Below, in pieces: positions 2,643 through 49,883 of a stretch of 51,251 nucleotides of DNA. The translations under genes were made by a program, and so were the position numbers. How positions within the stretch are numbered: the first letter of the stretch is position 1; every line of letters begins with the position of its first letter. The stretch covers positions 1 through 51,251 of the IMG/VR virus record IMGVR_UViG_2870495154_000004; one strand, written 5' to 3'. The notes below the pieces were generated by a model that saw only the letters and a program-made list of their open reading frames with translations, did no database searches and was not told where the DNA came from. This DNA comes from a virus. Taxonomy: Duplodnaviria; Heunggongvirae; Uroviricota; Caudoviricetes.

Positions 2643-3158
2643 TTATGCGGCTTTTCCATTAACAGATTCGGCCACAAGAACAACACCGTGTTTATTTCGA
2701 TCAGGATGTTCACTCCAGATTTCTGATACAGGAATACTTTCCCCGTCATAGCAGATCCGATCGCCATCAAACGGATAATACCGTGCGGAATCAGTATCTA
2801 AAATAAACACTTTCAGATTCGTTGAACGACGCGCTATATGCTACCAGAGGGCTTTACCTCCTTCATATTGCTCGTTATCACTTAATAGTATAACGCCCGC
2901 TTTTGTGGCTATCGTTTCATAAACAAACGTCGCAAGGCCAACATCACGTACAGCGCCATCGACAACAATCCCTTCAATCTGAGCAACGTCCTGTTCTTCC
3001 CAGAATTTCCGGACAAACACCCCTTCAAGCTGTGAACGACGCTGAAGCTCCAGAGTGGCAACAACCTTATGGCGAATATCACCATCAATAACAGAAGGTG
3101 CAGCTTCGATTACCGCAGCGAACGGAGTCTTTGGATCCCAGATGATCTGGTAAAGCAC
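2643..3158 (-). pseudogene. ORF interrupted by a single in-frame amber codon (105 aa + TAG + 66 aa in the same frame)
   Basis: 105-aa ORF ends at TAG (2841-2843); the same frame stays open for 66 more codons to a TAA at 2643-2645. Confidence 0.35.
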
Positions 3159-32453: not shown

Positions 32454-32630
32454 TGTTCATTCCACGGCCAAAAACAGAGAAAGGAAACGACAGAGGTCCA
32501 AAAGCTCGTTTTCAGCACCTGTCGTTTCCTTTCTTTTCAGGGGGTATTTTAAATAAAAACATTAAGTTACGACGAAGAAGAACGGAAATGCCTTAAACCG
32601 GAAAATTTTCATAAATAGCGAAAACCCGCG

Positions 32631-38418: not shown

Positions 38419-38784
38419 CTAATCCATTTCAAGTTTAACATCCAGAATTGAAAGGCATCCATCAATAAACCCCTCAGCCATCTGTATCTCAATGCGTATT
38501 AGTTTCTCATCCTTTCCACGCGCCTTTGCAATCTTACGCTTGGATATTCTGTATAAATAATGTGCCACAAGAAGCGAATGCTCATCAGGTCTTTTTTGCT
38601 TTAGACGTGCAAGACAACCTTCAATAATTAATGCATCACTATCTGAACAAGCCTGACGTGTTTTGCTTGTATAGGGAAGAAGCCCTTTAAACCCAGCAGC
38701 TATAGGAGAATAATCTACTCCTGAACTATCACTCGCCGCCCATGCTCCCCAACGATCCAGAACCATCTGAATATCACGCATCAC
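38419..38784 (-). CDS. Q: late antiterminator Q (phage 82 type)
   Basis: MRDIQMVLDRWGAWAA...IAAGFKGLL...EGCLARLK...LIRIEIQMAEGFIDGCLSILDVKLEMD matches Q82 family. Confidence 0.85.
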   Translation of the reverse strand: MMRDIQMVLDRWGAWAASDSSGVDYSPIAAGFKGLLPYTSKTRQACSDSDALIIEGCLARLKQKRPDEHSLLVAHYLYRISKRKIAKARGKDEKLIRIEIQMAEGFIDGCLSILDVKLEMD

Positions 38785-41326: not shown

Positions 41327-41820
41327 TACGCCCCCACGTAATTCCCTGACAGATACCACTCATCACTCGATACAGCGCGCTTGCTGCTTTTCCGTAAACA
41401 CTGCTCACGACGCGCCAGAAAATTGTTTCGTTCTGGCTGGGAATGGCTTTCACGGAATGCCGCCATCCACACCGTTGCAGCACGACGGTATAAGCCCCTG
41501 GACTCCAGTTCTTCAGCCTGGCGGGTCAGGCACAAAATCTCCCGCGGGTCGTTAGTGCCGACATAGAAATTGCGCACAGGTCTGGTTTCACGAACTGGTT
41601 GCGGTTCCGCCTCCTGCGCTCTCTCAGTCAGGCGCGGGAAATGTCTGCGTGTATCCCCTTCACAACGGTGAGCCACACGACCACTCTGACGTAACTTGCT
41701 TGCTGACTGCAGAACGCGCTGCCGTGAGTAACCTGCAAAAGCATCCGCAATGTCTCCGGAAGTACACCCCGGATGGGCTTCAATGTATTTCTGAACTTCA
41801 TTCAAAAGACTCATGATCAC
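41326..41820 (-). CDS. hypothetical protein, possible PerC-like regulator
   Basis: 164-aa ORF downstream of O-like gene; AEELESRGLYRRAATVWMAAF resembles PerC-type motifs (weak). Confidence 0.35.
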   Translation of the reverse strand: MIMSLLNEVQKYIEAHPGCTSGDIADAFAGYSRQRVLQSASKLRQSGRVAHRCEGDTRRHFPRLTERAQEAEPQPVRETRPVRNFYVGTNDPREILCLTRQAEELESRGLYRRAATVWMAAFRESHSQPERNNFLARREQCLRKSSKRAVSSDEWYLSGNYVGA

Positions 41821-42758
41821 CCCCTGAATCCTGCCGGGATCTGGCTGTAGTCCACGTTGTCGTAACTGGCTTTGAAGTACGGGTCTTCGCGTTTTTCGGT
41901 GTACGTGCTGACGGACGGCGATAAGCGCAGGGAAAGCTCATCCCATTTTTCCCGCAGCTTCGACGGGCTGAGCACGTTACGGCACCAGAACGGATCGCGG
42001 CTGACGCGGCTGTACATCTCGCAGATTTGTTTGTGAGTACGACCATCCTGCACACACATCAGGCGAATTTCGTTTGCCCAGGCTGTCCAGTTCGGTTCTT
42101 TGGGACGAACCACCTCGCCGTCACATTCGGCGGCCTGCTCGTACAGGGCGATGATTTTTTTCCAGAGCCACTGTGCGCAGGTCAAATCATCCTGCGTTCC
42201 CCACTGGCGCTTTTTAGGGCTGAATACAACCGCATTAGGATGGCGAGTTAAAAACTCCTGTTCAGCCGTCTGCGTGTCCGGTTGCGAAGCGTCCGGACGA
42301 GAAGTTTTTTTATCTGACGGATCATGTTTTGATTTTACTGACGGATCCCCGCCAGATTCTGACGGGTGAAAACCCGCTTTTTTGCCAGATTTCGACGCAT
42401 CAAATTTTGACGGGTCAGATTTTGATGCGTCAGATTTTGACGGGTCAGAATCTGACAATTGAGAAAATGCCGCTGCCTGAAGCTTCGCAACGTTAAGCTG
42501 ATAAACATTCGACGCATTGCGGTTACCCTGGCGACGCGCCTTACGCGTTAACCAGCCTTCTGCTTCCAGCCGTGCGATAGCCGTTCTGACGGTACTCATC
42601 CCCGCGCCAATCTGACGGGCAATGGTTTCAATTGATGGCCAGCACACACCTTCGTCATTACTGAAATCAGCCAGGCGGGCCATAATTGCCACGCTGGATA
42701 ATTTCATGCCTGACGCAGCGCAACCATCCCATACATAGCCGGTTAATTTAGTGCTCAT
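41817..42758 (-). CDS. replication initiation protein, lambda O-like N-terminal HTH, with internal iteron-encoded repeat
   Basis: N-terminus MSTKLTGYVWDGCAASGMKLSSVAIMARLADFSNDEGVCWPSIETIA is Phage_rep_O-like; internal SKSDASKSDPSKFDASKS repeat. Confidence 0.75.
   Translation of the reverse strand: MSTKLTGYVWDGCAASGMKLSSVAIMARLADFSNDEGVCWPSIETIARQIGAGMSTVRTAIARLEAEGWLTRKARRQGNRNASNVYQLNVAKLQAAAFSQLSDSDPSKSDASKSDPSKFDASKSGKKAGFHPSESGGDPSVKSKHDPSDKKTSRPDASQPDTQTAEQEFLTRHPNAVVFSPKKRQWGTQDDLTCAQWLWKKIIALYEQAAECDGEVVRPKEPNWTAWANEIRLMCVQDGRTHKQICEMYSRVSRDPFWCRNVLSPSKLREKWDELSLRLSPSVSTYTEKREDPYFKASYDNVDYSQIPAGFRG
42386..42457. repeat. replication origin iterons (five tandem ~15-bp repeats inside the O-like gene)
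   Basis: tandem CAGATTTTGACGGGT-like units; same arrangement as lambda ori. Confidence 0.6.
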
Positions 42759-43106: not shown

Positions 43107-43699
43107 GCGTTAGTTTCTCCACAGTCACGACACGCCACGGCGCCCGGAGCTGCACACTCGCGGGCGTCACTACTTTCTGAAACGCAAAAGATTTTGTAGA
43201 CCAGAGCTGCATGCTCCTGCAGCTTCGAAATTGAGAGGTACAGCTCATCGTTAATTGCTGTCTTCTCATGCGGTTCCACTACACCGTCTTCAATTGCTGA
43301 ACGAATCTGTCTGGAATAACTGCCGATCTGTTCAATGACTTCCAGCAGACGCTGGTTAATATCGGCATTGTCCACATCCTCGACGTCAGGAAGAGACACA
43401 AAGATGCCATTTGCAGACTGCGCCACAGCGTCAGCAATGAAGTGAGTTCCACCAGCACGTTGCAAAATCATTGCCCATCCCAGCGGGAAAATCTGATCGC
43501 CATCGGCACGAAGGCGGTTAAATAATGCGTTCTCTGTTACATCCAGCCAGTCAGCTGCTTCAGCGTAACCACCCGGCAACTTTGCGATAGTTTTTCTGAC
43601 AGCTTTCACGTACCACTCAGGCTGTTTTTCTACTTTCCAGTGATGCTTACCCACGGTTAGCCTCATCGTTCTGTGGTTTCTGTTAATCGATTTATCCAT
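43103..43699 (-). CDS. CII-like regulatory protein (CP76 phage-regulator family)
   Basis: ATG overlaps cro stop (AATGGATAA coupling); [22 protein letters not shown]...FIADAVAQ resembles CP76-type CII; alternative starts 43711 and 43768. Confidence 0.5.
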
Positions 43700-43892
43700 T
43701 AGATTTTTCATAAAGCTCAGGTTTAAATGGCAACCGTCCGCAAGTTCTATATGCAGCTTCTGCTGCACGTCCTTTTGGAATTAACTGGCCCGGACGGTTT
43801 CGCCACTGATAAACGGCTTCAGTTGTTATGCCGAAAAAAGCAGCAACTTTCTCAATACTGCCGAAGTAGCTTTCGATATCGTCAGTTGTCAT
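43692..43892 (-). CDS. cro: Cro-like repressor
   Basis: 66-aa HTH protein divergent from cI across the operator region. Confidence 0.75.
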   Translation of the reverse strand: MTTDDIESYFGSIEKVAAFFGITTEAVYQWRNRPGQLIPKGRAAEAAYRTCGRLPFKPELYEKSNG

Positions 43893-43904
43893 ACGCCCTC
43901 CAAA

Positions 43905-43967
43905 CTAAGTTTTGTTAGATGCTAATTACAAATCTATCTTTGGTCAATAAAAACTAAGATTACTTAG
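43905..43967. promoter_or_regulatory. OR-like region with two CTAAG-N4-(C/G)TTAG operators between cro and cI
   Basis: CTAAGTTTTGTTAG (43905-43918) and CTAAGATTACTTAG (43954-43967) in the 97-bp divergent intergenic region. Confidence 0.55.
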
Positions 43968-43989: not shown

Positions 43990-44616
43990 ATGGAAACGGT
44001 TGGTCAGCGTATAAAAGCTCTGAGAAGAGTTACCAGAACGTCCCAGAAAGAATTGGGTAAATTTTGTGGAGTAAGCGACGTTGCTGTGGGGTACTGGGAG
44101 AAAGACATCAATACCCCTGGCGGGGAGGCACTTTCGAAATTAGCGAAGTTCTTCAATACGTCAATAGATTACATTCTTTACGGTGCTGAGTTTGAAGGCA
44201 AACTCGTCACAAACATGCGCAGAGTTCCTGTAATATCGTGGGTTCAGGCTGGGCAGTTTACTGAGTGCAGGGCAGCAGAAGTGTTTAGTGAAGTGGACAA
44301 GTGGGTAGATACATCATTAAAGGTTGGTGATAACTCATTTGCATTAGAGGTTAAAGGTGACTCCATGACTAACCCTAATGGCCTCCCAACAATACCAGAA
44401 GGCGCAACAGTGATTGTAGATCCAGATGCAGAACCTCGTCATGGAAAAATAGTCATCGCTCGACTTGATGGAACAAACGAAGCTACAGTAAAAAAATTAG
44501 TCATCGATGGCCCTCAAAAGTTTTTAGTGCCATTAAATCCTCGGTATCCCAACATCCCTATCAATGGTAATTGCCTTATCATTGGTGTAGTCAAAGGAGT
44601 TCAATACGAACTCTAA
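43990..44616 (+). CDS. cI: CI-type prophage repressor (HTH + S24 LexA-like peptidase)
   Basis: 208 aa; N-terminal HTH, C-terminal S24-like domain with GDSM serine motif. Confidence 0.85.
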   Translation: METVGQRIKALRRVTRTSQKELGKFCGVSDVAVGYWEKDINTPGGEALSKLAKFFNTSIDYILYGAEFEGKLVTNMRRVPVISWVQAGQFTECRAAEVFSEVDKWVDTSLKVGDNSFALEVKGDSMTNPNGLPTIPEGATVIVDPDAEPRHGKIVIARLDGTNEATVKKLVIDGPQKFLVPLNPRYPNIPINGNCLIIGVVKGVQYEL

Positions 44617-44669: not shown

Positions 44670-44698
44670 TTGTCATGATAACTAAGTTAAGTTAGATT
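44670..44698 (+). promoter_or_regulatory. candidate pL/OL: TTGTCA -35, 17-bp spacer containing a third CTAAG-type operator, TAGATT -10
   Basis: operator CTAAGTTAAGTTAG at 44682-44695, same family as the OR sites, 66 bp after the cI stop. Confidence 0.4.
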
Positions 44699-44804: not shown

Positions 44805-44843
44805 TAGCTCTTTAACAATCTGGATATCCACAACAGTAGTAAT

Positions 44844-45335
44844 CTACAGATTGCCGTTAAGTTTTCTGGACAACTCCTCAATGGATGGAGGCGATACGTA
44901 ATCCGGATTTTTATTCATCAGAAACTTATTTTCACAGTGGAGGCACCTGCTTTTATGAAAAAGCTCATCTTCGCTAACCGGGAATGGTTGAAGTATCGAT
45001 ACTATCTTTTGTCCAAAACATTTTGGGCAAAGATGCATGGTTATGCTGCCACCGTTCACGATTACCTCCTTCGAGTATACAAAAGTACCCGACTCAAGTT
45101 GGTTAAGGATATAGCCTTCCGTCTGAGCCTCAAAGTTTTCGAATTCTGCAATTTTAGCTTTGAGAGAAGCATTTATTTCTTGATAAGAGCCCACCAGTTC
45201 AACGAGAGACACGCATTCGCGCTGAATAGACGCAAGCTTTGAGTTCAGCTCACCAATAGCCGCATTTACTTCAGCTTGAGTTTTTGCCTCGTTCATTAGT
45301 TTTGCAATCTGGGCTGTTTCACGAATAGCCGTCAT
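44844..45335 (-). CDS. hypothetical coiled-coil protein with C-terminal CxxC...CxxC zinc-ribbon
   Basis: about 163 aa from MTAIRETAQIAKL; CPKCFGQK ... CLHCENKF; opposite strand to cI and the early-left genes. Confidence 0.45.
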   Translation of the reverse strand: MTAIRETAQIAKLMNEAKTQAEVNAAIGELNSKLASIQRECVSLVELVGSYQEINASLKAKIAEFENFEAQTEGYILNQLESGTFVYSKEVIVNGGSITMHLCPKCFGQKIVSILQPFPVSEDELFHKSRCLHCENKFLMNKNPDYVSPPSIEELSRKLNGNL

Positions 45336-45373
45336 TGCTGCCGTTAATTCAGCGATCACATTGAATACTCTTA

Positions 45374-45419
45374 TTGTTGTTGGGGATATCCAGATTAACC
45401 GAATCCTTGTTGTTGGGGA
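45374..45419. repeat. two 13-bp direct repeats TTGTTGTTGGGGA spaced 33 bp apart, upstream of the Zn-ribbon gene
   Basis: exact copies at 45374-45386 and 45407-45419. Confidence 0.5.
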
Positions 45420-45692
45420 ATAACCAGGTCCACCTCGCCTGATGTGGCTAAAAGCAGGCACATAACAGCTAAGTATTTTCAACCAGAGAGAATCCTTAGC
45501 GTTGTGGTGAATGCGGCTCAGCGCACGCGGGTTAAGGTTGAGGCTGACAGTCGACCTTCTGTGGATACCCACCCGCCTGGTGTGCAACCTTCGCCAGGCA
45601 CCGGGAGGCACCCGGCACCACAACTTTATGCTGTGTGTAGTCCTGGCGGTATCAGCTTGTACCCTTGCTTCCGGCTGGTACCGTCCTTTTTA

Positions 45693-45779
45693 CAAAACAG
45701 AGAAGAGTATCACCGGACGACGGGCTCATAACCCAATCCATCCGGGCGGCTGCCACCGCAGGTGTTCTTCTCTGTTTTG
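45693..45779 (+). ncRNA. structured element: 14-bp perfect inverted repeat enclosing two GC-rich hairpins (candidate cis-acting RNA)
   Basis: CAAAACAGAGAAGA (45693-45706) pairs with TCTTCTCTGTTTTG (45766-45779); internal hairpins CCGGAC...CCGGG and GCGG-CTGCCA-CCGC. Confidence 0.3.
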
Positions 45780-45828
45780 TGGAGAAACCAACCGACCTTG
45801 CAGGGTCGATATGATGGGGAGCAGCAAA

Positions 45829-48403: not shown

Positions 48404-48753
48404 TGGAGCCATACAGCCTCACACTCGATGAGGCCTGTCATTTTCTCAAGATATCCAGACCGACTGCCATTAACTGGATACGCACAGGGCGTCTTCAGGC
48501 AACACGCAAAGATCCCACTAAGAATAAATCTCCTTACCTCACAACACGACAAGCCTGCATTGCGGCTCTTCAGTCTCCGCTGCATACTGTCCAGGTGAGC
48601 GCGGGTGATGGCATAACAGAGGAAAGAAAATGTCACTCTTCCGCAGAGGTGAAATATGGTACGCCAGTTTCACATTGCCGAACGGTAAAAGATTTAAACA
48701 GTCTCTTGGAACAAAGGACAAAAGGCAGGCGACAGAACTCCATGACAAGCTAA
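48403..48753 (+). CDS. xis: excisionase (P22 Xis-like HTH)
   Basis: [33 protein letters not shown] directly upstream of and overlapping int. Confidence 0.7.
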
Positions 48754-49793
48754 AGGCTGAAGCATGGCGGGTCAGCAAACTTGGTGAAATACCTGATATA
48801 ACGTTCGAGGAAGCGTGTATCAGGTGGCTTGAAGAGAAAGCACATAAAAAATCACTGGACGATGACAAAAGCCGGATCGGATTCTGGCTTCAACATTTCG
48901 CAGGAATGCAACTAAGAGACATTACTGAATCAAAAATTTATTCAGCAATGCAGAAAATGACGAACCGGCGTCATGAGGAAAACTGGAAACTCAGGACAGA
49001 AGCATGCAGAAAAAAAGGGAAACCTGTTCCAGAATACACGCCAAAACCAGCGTCCGTTGCAACGAAGGCTACGCATCTTTCATTTATAAAAGCCCTACTA
49101 AGAGCCGCAGAGCGTGAATGGAAAATGCTGGATAAGGCACCAATTATTAAAGTGCCTCAACCAAAGAATAAACGGATCCGCTGGCTGGAGCCCCATGAAG
49201 CACAAAGGCTGATTGATGAATGTCCGGAGCCATTAAAGTCTGTTGTTGAATTTGCACTGGCAACAGGCTTAAGACGCTCGAACATCATCAACCTTGAATG
49301 GCAACAAATAGACATGCAGCGCCGGGTGGCATGGATAAACCCGGAAGAGAGTAAATCAAACCGCGCAATTGGCGTTGCGCTGAATGATACTGCATGTCGC
49401 GTTTTGAAAAAACAAATCGGGAATCATCACCGTTGGGTATTTGTGTACAAGGAAAGCTGTACCAAACCAGACGGAACGAAAGCGCCAACAGTAAGGAAGA
49501 TGCGGTATGACGCAAACACAGCCTGGAAAGCGGCGCTGAGACGGGCTGGTATTGATGATTTCAGATTTCACGACTTGAGACACACCTGGGCAAGTTGGCT
49601 GGTTCAAGCCGGAGTCCCGTTGTCAGTGTTACAGGAAATGGGAGGCTGGGAGTCTATCGAAATGGTTCGTCGATATGCTCACCTTGCACCTAATCACCTT
49701 ACCGAACACGCACGGCAAATAGACTCGATCCTGAACCCATCGGTCCCAAATTCGTCCCAGTCAAAAAATAAGGAAGGTACTAATGATGTGTAA
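48630..49793 (+). CDS. int: tyrosine integrase, P22 Int-like, thrW-specific
   Basis: 387 aa; arm-binding N-terminus and catalytic HDLRHTWAS...VRRYAH; stop codon is the first 3 nt of the att core. Confidence 0.9.
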
Positions 49794-49853
49794 CTTATTG
49801 ATTTAAATGGTGCCGATAATAGGAGTCGAACCTACGACCTTCGCATTACGAAT
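49791..49853. repeat. att core copy adjacent to int, overlapping the 3' 46 nt of thrW
   Basis: exact 63-bp direct repeat of 3532-3594. Confidence 0.85.
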
Positions 49854-49883
49854 GCGCTGCTCTACCAACTGAGCTATATCGGC
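49808..49883 (-). tRNA. thrW: tRNA-Thr (anticodon CGU)
   Basis: 76-nt cloverleaf ending CCA; anticodon loop TTCGTAA; next to proA. Confidence 0.9.

Follow-up and report, generated by a model that had tools for sequence, protein, structure and literature searches.

The nut sites of phage lambda combine boxA with a 15-nt boxB hairpin and work with the N protein, and the N leader of this phage contains an RNase III site. RNase III sites such as those of the lambda N leader, T7 R1.1 and Qin dicBF share a duplex of about 20-25 bp located between an upstream RNA and a first gene, and the C4 antisense RNA of phages P1 and P7 is cut out of a phage operon leader by RNase P as a small RNA. The known bacterial tRNA mimics either copy the acceptor/T half of the molecule, as in tmRNA and YrlA, or constitute the operator of a synthetase gene (thrS); to our knowledge, no mimic of the initiator anticodon arm is known in a phage leader. 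The put RNAs of phage HK022 are about 70 nt long, form two stem-loops arranged in a V and bind the beta' zinc-binding domain; they occur as a pair, with putL at +3 of PL and putR about 270 nt after PR (PMC9378689). In the case of the DicF leader, a 190-nt form requires RNase III (bioRxiv 10.1101/2023.04.14.536235). Finally, sRNA-17 of E. coli K1 RS218, a 193-nt RNA established by 5'/3' RACE and Northern blot, is encoded by a mEp460-like prophage (PMC7719688). The element analyzed here is found in the same leader region as sRNA-17, STnc100 and DicF but outside those RNAs and their Rfam models. No description of it was found in Rfam 15 or in the literature searched: in the papers on sRNA-17, Pas/STnc100 and dicBF, coverage stops at the terminator, and the element goes unmentioned in the sRNA-17 paper. 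What is new is an undescribed RNA family, probably of a tRNA-like or tRNA-mimicking kind, and not a member of the put family.

The window, i.e., the whole stretch of 51,251 nt of DNA that was analyzed, corresponds to an SfV/SfIV-like lambdoid prophage at thrW, with the integrase at 48630-49793, a tRNA-Thr gene on the minus strand at 49808-49883 and proA adjoining it. The repressor gene cI, identified by its Peptidase_S24 and HTH domains, is on the plus strand (43990-44616), whereas the minus strand encodes cro (43692-43892) and a CII-like gene. Hence, the early-left direction is that of the plus strand. The Q-like antiterminator gene is located at 38419-38784 on the minus strand. An operator-like 17-mer (AACTAAGTT..GTTAG) is present three times, at 43902-43918 and 43951-43967, both between cI and cro, and at 44679-44695, the last copy being overlapped by a promoter-like site of the plus strand (TTGTCA-17-TAGATT, 44670-44698) just after cI. 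Judging from these motifs, this site and the third 17-mer probably represent PL and OL, and the predicted untranslated leader from PL to yfdP would be about 1.1 kb long. No N-like family was found by Pfam or PHROGs in any early-left open reading frame, in agreement with an earlier note on this DNA, in which no arginine-rich N-like open reading frame had been seen. A recognisable N is likewise lacking in a whole phage class (SfV, SfIV, mEp460, ST64B, e14, cdtI and the Stx2c phages), and no N is annotated in the phages that carry the form of the element present in the window. Between cI and the leader sRNA, a minus-strand gene (44844-45341, phrog_1244) is antisense to the PL transcript and is flanked by a 26-nt inverted repeat (44817-44842 and 45371-45396, 85% complementary). 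The segment 44817-45396 looks like an inserted moron cassette, and SfV and mEp460 have different inserts at this site.

The element was brought to attention by the earlier note as a perfect 14-bp inverted repeat enclosing two hairpins just upstream of the first plus-strand early gene. The repeat is real and perfect, its length being 15 bp: the arms, 45692-45706 (ACAAAACAGAGAAGA) and 45766-45780, are 100% complementary and separated by 59 nt. It ends 48 nt before the yfdP-like gene (phrog_204, profile match), the first protein gene of the early-left operon, which extends on the plus strand from 45829, and not 45830, to 46191. In the whole 51-kb window, just one other perfect inverted repeat of at least 15 bp with separate arms within 150 nt was detected, a 16-bp repeat with arms 25 nt apart (AGAAAGGAAACGACAG, 32478-32534), and the sequence of the repeat arm has no second occurrence anywhere in the window (0.09 chance matches expected). 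Further inverted repeats are clustered at 42353-42454 inside the O-like replication gene (41817-42758) and are most likely the iterons of the origin. When folded as plus-strand RNA, the segment 45685-45790 reached -46.3 kcal/mol, compared with -25.7 ± 3.4 kcal/mol for shuffled sequences (n = 200), i.e., a z-score of -6.1. In this fold, the closing stem reaches 20 bp when G.U pairs are counted and encloses two hairpins, so that both the inner hairpins and the structured RNA proposed by the earlier note for the head of the operon were recovered.

The element is a discrete, autonomous RNA module of the plus strand, 45687-45788, in which three helices meet in a three-way junction. The closing helix P1 pairs 45692-45711 with 45761-45780 over 20 bp, of which 15 bp are perfect. 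It is preceded by the U-run of the upstream terminator (45687-45691), which pairs with GGAGA (45781-45785) and adds about five pairs, bringing P1 to about 25 bp. This extension is also predicted by RNAalifold, which pairs columns 3-7 with columns 123-127 in 42 sequences, and the terminator T-run is found immediately 5' of P1 in 112 of the 114 copies of the form present in the window, hereafter type A. P2 (45713-45745) is an interrupted 10-bp arm composed of a CCGGA/UCCGG base, a GA/UC step and an apical GGG/CCC; its 14-nt tip, CGGGCTCATAACCC (45721-45734), equals nucleotides 28-41 of the E. coli initiator tRNA. P3 (45746-45759) is a variable hairpin, GCGG CUGCCA CCGC in the window, replaced by inserts of 25-40 nt in other subfamilies. 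A conserved GGAGAAAC tail (45781-45788) forms the 3' boundary of the module, and sequence families diverge just beyond it. A separate small hairpin (45793-45808, CGACC UUGCAG GGUCG) is located directly 5' of the yfdP ribosome-binding site; at this position ST64B, phiNP and the Klebsiella relatives carry GGCGG UGGCAG CCGCC, with compensatory changes in the stem and a conserved loop.

Conservation in relatives, which the earlier note had proposed as a check, was assessed on a structure alignment of 42 distinct type-A copies, and the element was found to be conserved with covarying helices. Over the three helices, 96.0% of the cells were paired, against 41-50% when the 3' partners were slid, and 11 pairs had changed on both sides, against one or two in the slid controls; none of 500 shuffles equalled the observed values. 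In P1, whose length is constant in all 42 sequences, 96.4% of the cells were paired and compensatory changes affected 6 of the 20 pairs. The basal stem of P2 covaries as well, columns 33 and 57 being A-U in 15 sequences, G-C in 21 and G-U in 2, with base variants such as CCUGA/UCAGG, ACGGA/UCCGU and CCAGG/CCUGG, and P3 shows compensatory changes at three of its four pairs. The apical GGG/CCC of P2 is invariant, so that these three pairs are without covariation and are given by the energy model alone. Independently, RNAalifold recovered P1 and its U-run extension; it prefers another inner fold, which is itself devoid of covariation. The strand also left a trace in the alignment, as G.U cells (79) exceed A.C cells (17), a count dominated by two columns, which favours an RNA of the plus strand. 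A small protein was considered and rejected because total lengths (104, 105, 106, 107, 125 and 129 nt) differ by values that are not multiples of three, excluding a coding reading. Hence, with high confidence, the element is a conserved, folded RNA structure of the plus strand that forms a family.

This family is widespread among the temperate phages of Enterobacterales and was shown to be confined to them. It was detected in 2807 of 5426 complete E. coli genomes, with a median of one copy and a maximum of five, and in 71 phage records, including SfV, SfIV, SfII, mEp460, cdtI, Stx2c, some Stx2a and ST64B, in addition to Citrobacter phiNP and Klebsiella and Pantoea phages. When IMG/VR was scanned with a pattern, 127 copies were returned, 83 of them distinct, and the family covariance model (R1) gave 92-122 bits in about 25 species of Enterobacterales, with one copy in the window; pattern matches outside Enterobacterales were not family members. 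Rfam 15 gave only chance-level overlaps on 45692-45780 (hairpin ribozyme and ar7, E of at least 5). Two forms were distinguished, type A, in a long helix right after a terminator, and type B, after a tRNA. Type A heads the early-left operon, except in Pantoea PA-1, where a type-A-like copy (51.5 bits) belongs to the late leader, follows a terminator and precedes an STnc100-like start. Rfam 15 yielded no match on the type-B and PA-1 copies at E up to 0.1.

The context of the element is constant, a terminator or a tRNA being found on its 5' side and the first gene of a lytic operon on its 3' side. At least six unrelated terminator hairpins occur upstream, each followed by the same T-run-AC-P1 junction, and conservation ends downstream after the tail. 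The first downstream gene is YfdP at 77 loci, RdgC at 13, YfdR at 8 and an excisionase (Xis) at 1. The element is present at each of the 80 closely related yfdP loci and ends 40 nt before the yfdP start; in a 933W-like phage with N, yfdP is in the middle of the operon and the element is absent. The layout of type-A phages is cI, an optional moron, the sRNA, the element and the first gene, with xis and int at the end. In K-12, the copy is located in e14, just 5' of xisE and beneath the annotated open reading frame ymfH. The latter (2822-3133 of the e14 locus L001) overlies both the sRNA terminator and the element, and is probably not a protein gene. A ymfH clone is listed among the triggers of the retron-Sen2 RcaT toxin in a screen (bioRxiv 10.1101/2020.06.22.160242), an effect that could be due to the RNA.

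A further feature of the module is its likeness to tRNA. The tip of P2, CGGGCUCAUAACCC (45721-45734), is identical to nucleotides 28-41 of the initiator tRNA, comprising three G-C pairs and the loop CUCAUAA; the tRNA-fMet sequence used was checked against the E. coli genomes, of which 5425 of 5426 contain it at 100% identity under the annotation tRNA-Met. Hence, the features of an anticodon-arm mimic are present, i.e., a 7-nt loop with U33, the CAU triplet and closing G-C pairs, on a 3-bp stem without covariation. Most sequences of alignment A2 had been gathered with a pattern that fixes the core, and core invariance there is partly by construction. The scan was thus repeated with a pattern confined to the P1/P2 junction. 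Among the 141 family members recovered in this way, GGGCUCAU was kept in 139 and CAU in 140, and loop positions 37-38 varied (AA, UA or UC), which makes the loop a poor fit to a strict mimic of a VapC site. The e14 copy is an exception, its loop being UUAAUAA, and the 80-90% identity band, a class that includes e14, comprises 313 records; either CAU is dispensable in e14-type copies or e14 is decaying.

Type B extends the likeness. It is 72 nt long and is located inside phage tRNA arrays, 5-6 nt past the CCA of tRNA-Arg, tRNA-Thr or tRNA-Asn, in Klebsiella-type lambdoid phages, where it is part of the late leader, 3' of Q and of an 81-bit STnc100 match. Its helices are a P1 of 6-7 bp, a P2 of 7+3 bp and a covarying P3 of 6-7 bp, and its sequence ends in (G/A)CCA, exactly where the similarity between phages ceases. 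A tRNA is built of two domains, one formed by the acceptor and T stems and the other by the anticodon and D stems. The helix lengths of type B match these two domains, with 12-13 bp for P1 plus P3 and 10 bp for P2. The window copy, of type A, has no CCA end and a P1 of 20 bp. The likeness is partial: neither type was called a tRNA by ARAGORN (mitochondrial mode included) or by Rfam RF00005, the D arm and the T-loop motif are absent from the element, and resemblance to tRNA-fMet beyond the shared 14-nt anticodon stem-loop is weak. An origin from the phage's own tRNA-Met was rejected because the anticodon arm differs. Set beside the initiator tRNA and the tRNA mimics, namely the plant-virus TLS, the tRNA-like domain of tmRNA, the Y RNA YrlA and the thrS operator, the element resembles them in having a type B that is tRNA-sized, is located in tRNA arrays and ends in RCCA. 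A genuine relationship between the element and tRNA is rather probable. At the type-B loci (L009, 2560-2660, and others), the next 90 nt or so belong to one or the other of two conserved sequence groups, each closed by an intrinsic terminator and followed by the lysis genes, and this stretch may be a further small RNA.

A partial likeness of this kind, together with the perfect terminal inverted repeat and the mosaic boundaries at both ends of the element, would also be expected if the locus had no RNA function and were a decayed tRNA pseudogene, a recombination linker, a DNA cruciform or a miniature transposable element. This explanation is very improbable in view of the compensatory changes in three helices and of the excess of G.U over A.C cells, which points to one RNA strand. 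It also accounts poorly for a single copy per prophage in a constant context, with a median of one per genome, and for the occupation of all 80 close yfdP loci. In particular, a miniature inverted-repeat transposable element was rejected because of the constant context, the single copy in the window and the lack of any empty site among these 80 yfdP loci.

Upstream of the element, a homologue of sRNA-17 is encoded on the plus strand (45500-45691). Its body resembles STnc100 and is closed by GUUGUGGUG/CACCACAAC, and its terminator, whose stem is formed by 45645-45656 and 45674-45685, is DicF-like. The Rfam matches to STnc100 (45471-45693, 40.5 bits) and DicF (45632-45686, 20.5 bits) are both below their gathering scores, 47 and 48, respectively, so that annotation pipelines would miss this sRNA. 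According to the primers published for sRNA-17, its 5' end is at CGTTGTGGTGAATGCG and its 3' end is ...GGTACCGCTCTTTT (PMC7719688). These ends align with positions 45500 and 45691 of the window. The middle of the sRNA differs between mEp460 and the window, and the closing helix and the terminator are common to both. Since the 3' end of sRNA-17 is the T-run before the element, transcripts of the lysogen most likely stop at this T-run, which abuts the element. A motif resembling GAATCCTTGTTGTTGGGG is present in three direct copies (45368-45385, 45401-45418 and 45490-45507), the last of which overlaps the 5' end of the sRNA; these copies may have arisen by duplication of the sRNA start or may form an array for protein binding. 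In the Qin prophage of K-12 (L172, 1551-1760), an STnc100-like domain (34.4 bits) is located between the DicF terminator and dicB and opens with GTGGTGAATGCGGCTGAGCGCACGCGG, as does the sRNA of the window. This arrangement implies that the STnc100 domain recurs in early-left and late leaders, its order relative to DicF and to the element being different. As the sRNA resembles STnc100, which follows Q in other phages, a Q-dependent leader was considered; it was rejected because the leader from Q to the lysis genes of this prophage contains no STnc100-like or element-like sequence.

The element itself might be an intrinsic terminator or attenuator, acting as a second stop behind the sRNA terminator, an option that the earlier note had raised. 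Its hairpin is strong, its A-tract and U-tract are arranged with the symmetry of bidirectional terminators, and if the lower 7 bp were opened the upper stem would be followed by UUUUGUGG. Such a role is nevertheless improbable. Intrinsic-terminator scans do not report the element, the "loop" of which measures 59-85 nt and is branched. The U-run is part of the stem, the full helix is followed by the tail described above, and UUUUGU becomes UUGUGU(G/A) in other subfamilies; moreover, termination would not need the conserved core. Expression data point in the same direction: in wild-type RS218, yfdP had 0.5 reads and yfdR none, and with a cassette in place of the sRNA body these values rose to 47 and 8.5, respectively (PMC7719688), indicating that the element is no absolute block to transcription.

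The earlier note had also suggested antitermination by an RNA like HK022 put, which would replace N by making RNA polymerase resistant to terminators in cis. Like put, the element is a structured RNA encoded by a lambdoid phage devoid of N, in the leader of an early operon, and no protein is known to be dedicated to it. The search for an N-like gene was negative, the operon headed by the element must pass terminators, and the family also occurs in late leaders. The comparison fails in the details. Put forms two stem-loops, whereas in the element a 20-bp helix closes a three-way junction; put is next to its promoter, whereas some 1.1 kb separate the element from the predicted PL, and the element comes after the first terminator, the very one that would need suppression; and put occurs as a pair, whereas the covariance model finds a single element in the window and no counterpart of putR in the early-right leader. 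The same model had no match in the HK022 immunity region. A homology to put was further rejected since the PL-nun region of HK022 offers only a short resemblance, GCGGGTTCAGG versus GCGGGTTAAGG, which falls within the upstream sRNA and not within the element. In addition, type B is located in tRNA arrays and ends in RCCA, and no convincing plus-strand terminators were found downstream in the operon. By position, shape and copy number, the element is not a put-type antiterminator, and a put-like RNA is the least probable of the explanations weighed. Besides, because it comes after the sRNA terminator, the element cannot explain how the operon passes that terminator without N.

Other kinds of RNA were compared as well. 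Unlike a lambda-type nut site, the element has no boxB-type hairpin and no N-like family accompanies it; a CGCUCUU-like string seen in some relatives consists of terminator stem plus U-run and varies. There was no Rfam match to C4, and a C4-like cis antisense RNA was rejected because no complement of the conserved core exists elsewhere in the window. A hammerhead ribozyme was discarded as well, type B having CUGAUGA without the GAAA core, type A being without the motif, and Rfam giving no match.

The RNase III sites resemble the element in position and in duplex length, with the difference that those named above are plain or bubbled hairpins, whereas the element adds a conserved branched insert and its cleavage is only predicted. 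With its 20 bp, which the U-run extends to 25 bp, and its invariant length in the 42 sequences, the duplex suits RNase III (about two helical turns). The RNase III target list that was searched has no entry for the e14 region of the element. By analogy with the DicF leader, excision of the element by RNase III is quite possible, at somewhat less than an even chance. The main alternative to a freed RNA is that the element acts purely in cis, either as a processing and stability site for one of the two enzymes RNase III and RNase P or by controlling translation, and thus sets the 5' end and the expression of the first gene. The element is always located between the 3' end of an RNA and the first coding sequence of a long operon, P1 is constantly 20 bp long, the small hairpin at 45793-45808 comes next, directly before the yfdP ribosome-binding site, and the N leader of lambda contains an RNase III site. 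A purely cis role is nonetheless unlikely. The first downstream gene varies, and conservation of the module ends at its tail; about 90 nt and a terminator intervene between type B and the lysis genes, and type B has an RCCA end like a free RNA; and a processing site alone would not need an invariant mimic of an anticodon arm.

The reading that we tentatively favour, although it falls slightly short of an even chance, is that the element is a tRNA-mimicking small RNA made from read-through transcripts only and probably excised by RNase III. According to this model, transcripts of the lysogen would probably stop at the terminator ending at 45691, as shown for the homologous sRNA-17, and the element would be silent, whereas read-through transcription during lytic growth would produce it. 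The P1 duplex of about 20-25 bp would then be cut by RNase III, for which the homologous DicF leader provides a precedent, and type B would be cut by tRNA-processing enzymes instead. Cleavage by RNase III would both free a small, stable tRNA mimic and split the transcript between the upstream sRNA and the yfdP mRNA. The mimic of the CAU anticodon arm would be the working surface, presented to a reader of the initiator tRNA such as the 30S P site with IF3, MetRS or an anticodon nuclease (VapC). The small RNA mentioned among the options of the earlier note comes close to this model, which we infer in turn. Its parts are not equally probable. That the element acts in trans as a mimic is a reasonable possibility, short of the likelihood given to its excision. 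That it serves, in lytic growth only, as a decoy or competitor of the initiator-tRNA anticodon arm is doubtful, in either of the two versions that may be envisaged and that share this low likelihood. In the first version, the decoy would soak up a defence nuclease, e.g., the VapC/MvpT/VagD toxins, which are common in Shigella, Salmonella, Klebsiella and E. coli. In the second, it would occupy the 30S P site or MetRS and thereby retune translation initiation. As part of this doubtful reading, type B could even be an RNA that lacks a D arm and is nevertheless able to be charged.

The element is carried by about half of the complete E. coli genomes, including those with Stx2c, cdtI and Shigella serotype-converting phages, where it is either unannotated or hidden beneath "hypothetical protein" calls such as ymfH, so that likely false protein annotations can now be flagged. 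At minimum, it defines a new RNA family, which has two forms and a clear structure. The element also provides a concrete RNA for study in the many lambdoid phages whose early-left operon is expressed in the absence of N and, if it is a true tRNA mimic, it would add a new class to the story of phage tRNAs and counter-defence; no paper on a phage mimic of the initiator tRNA was found in our literature search.
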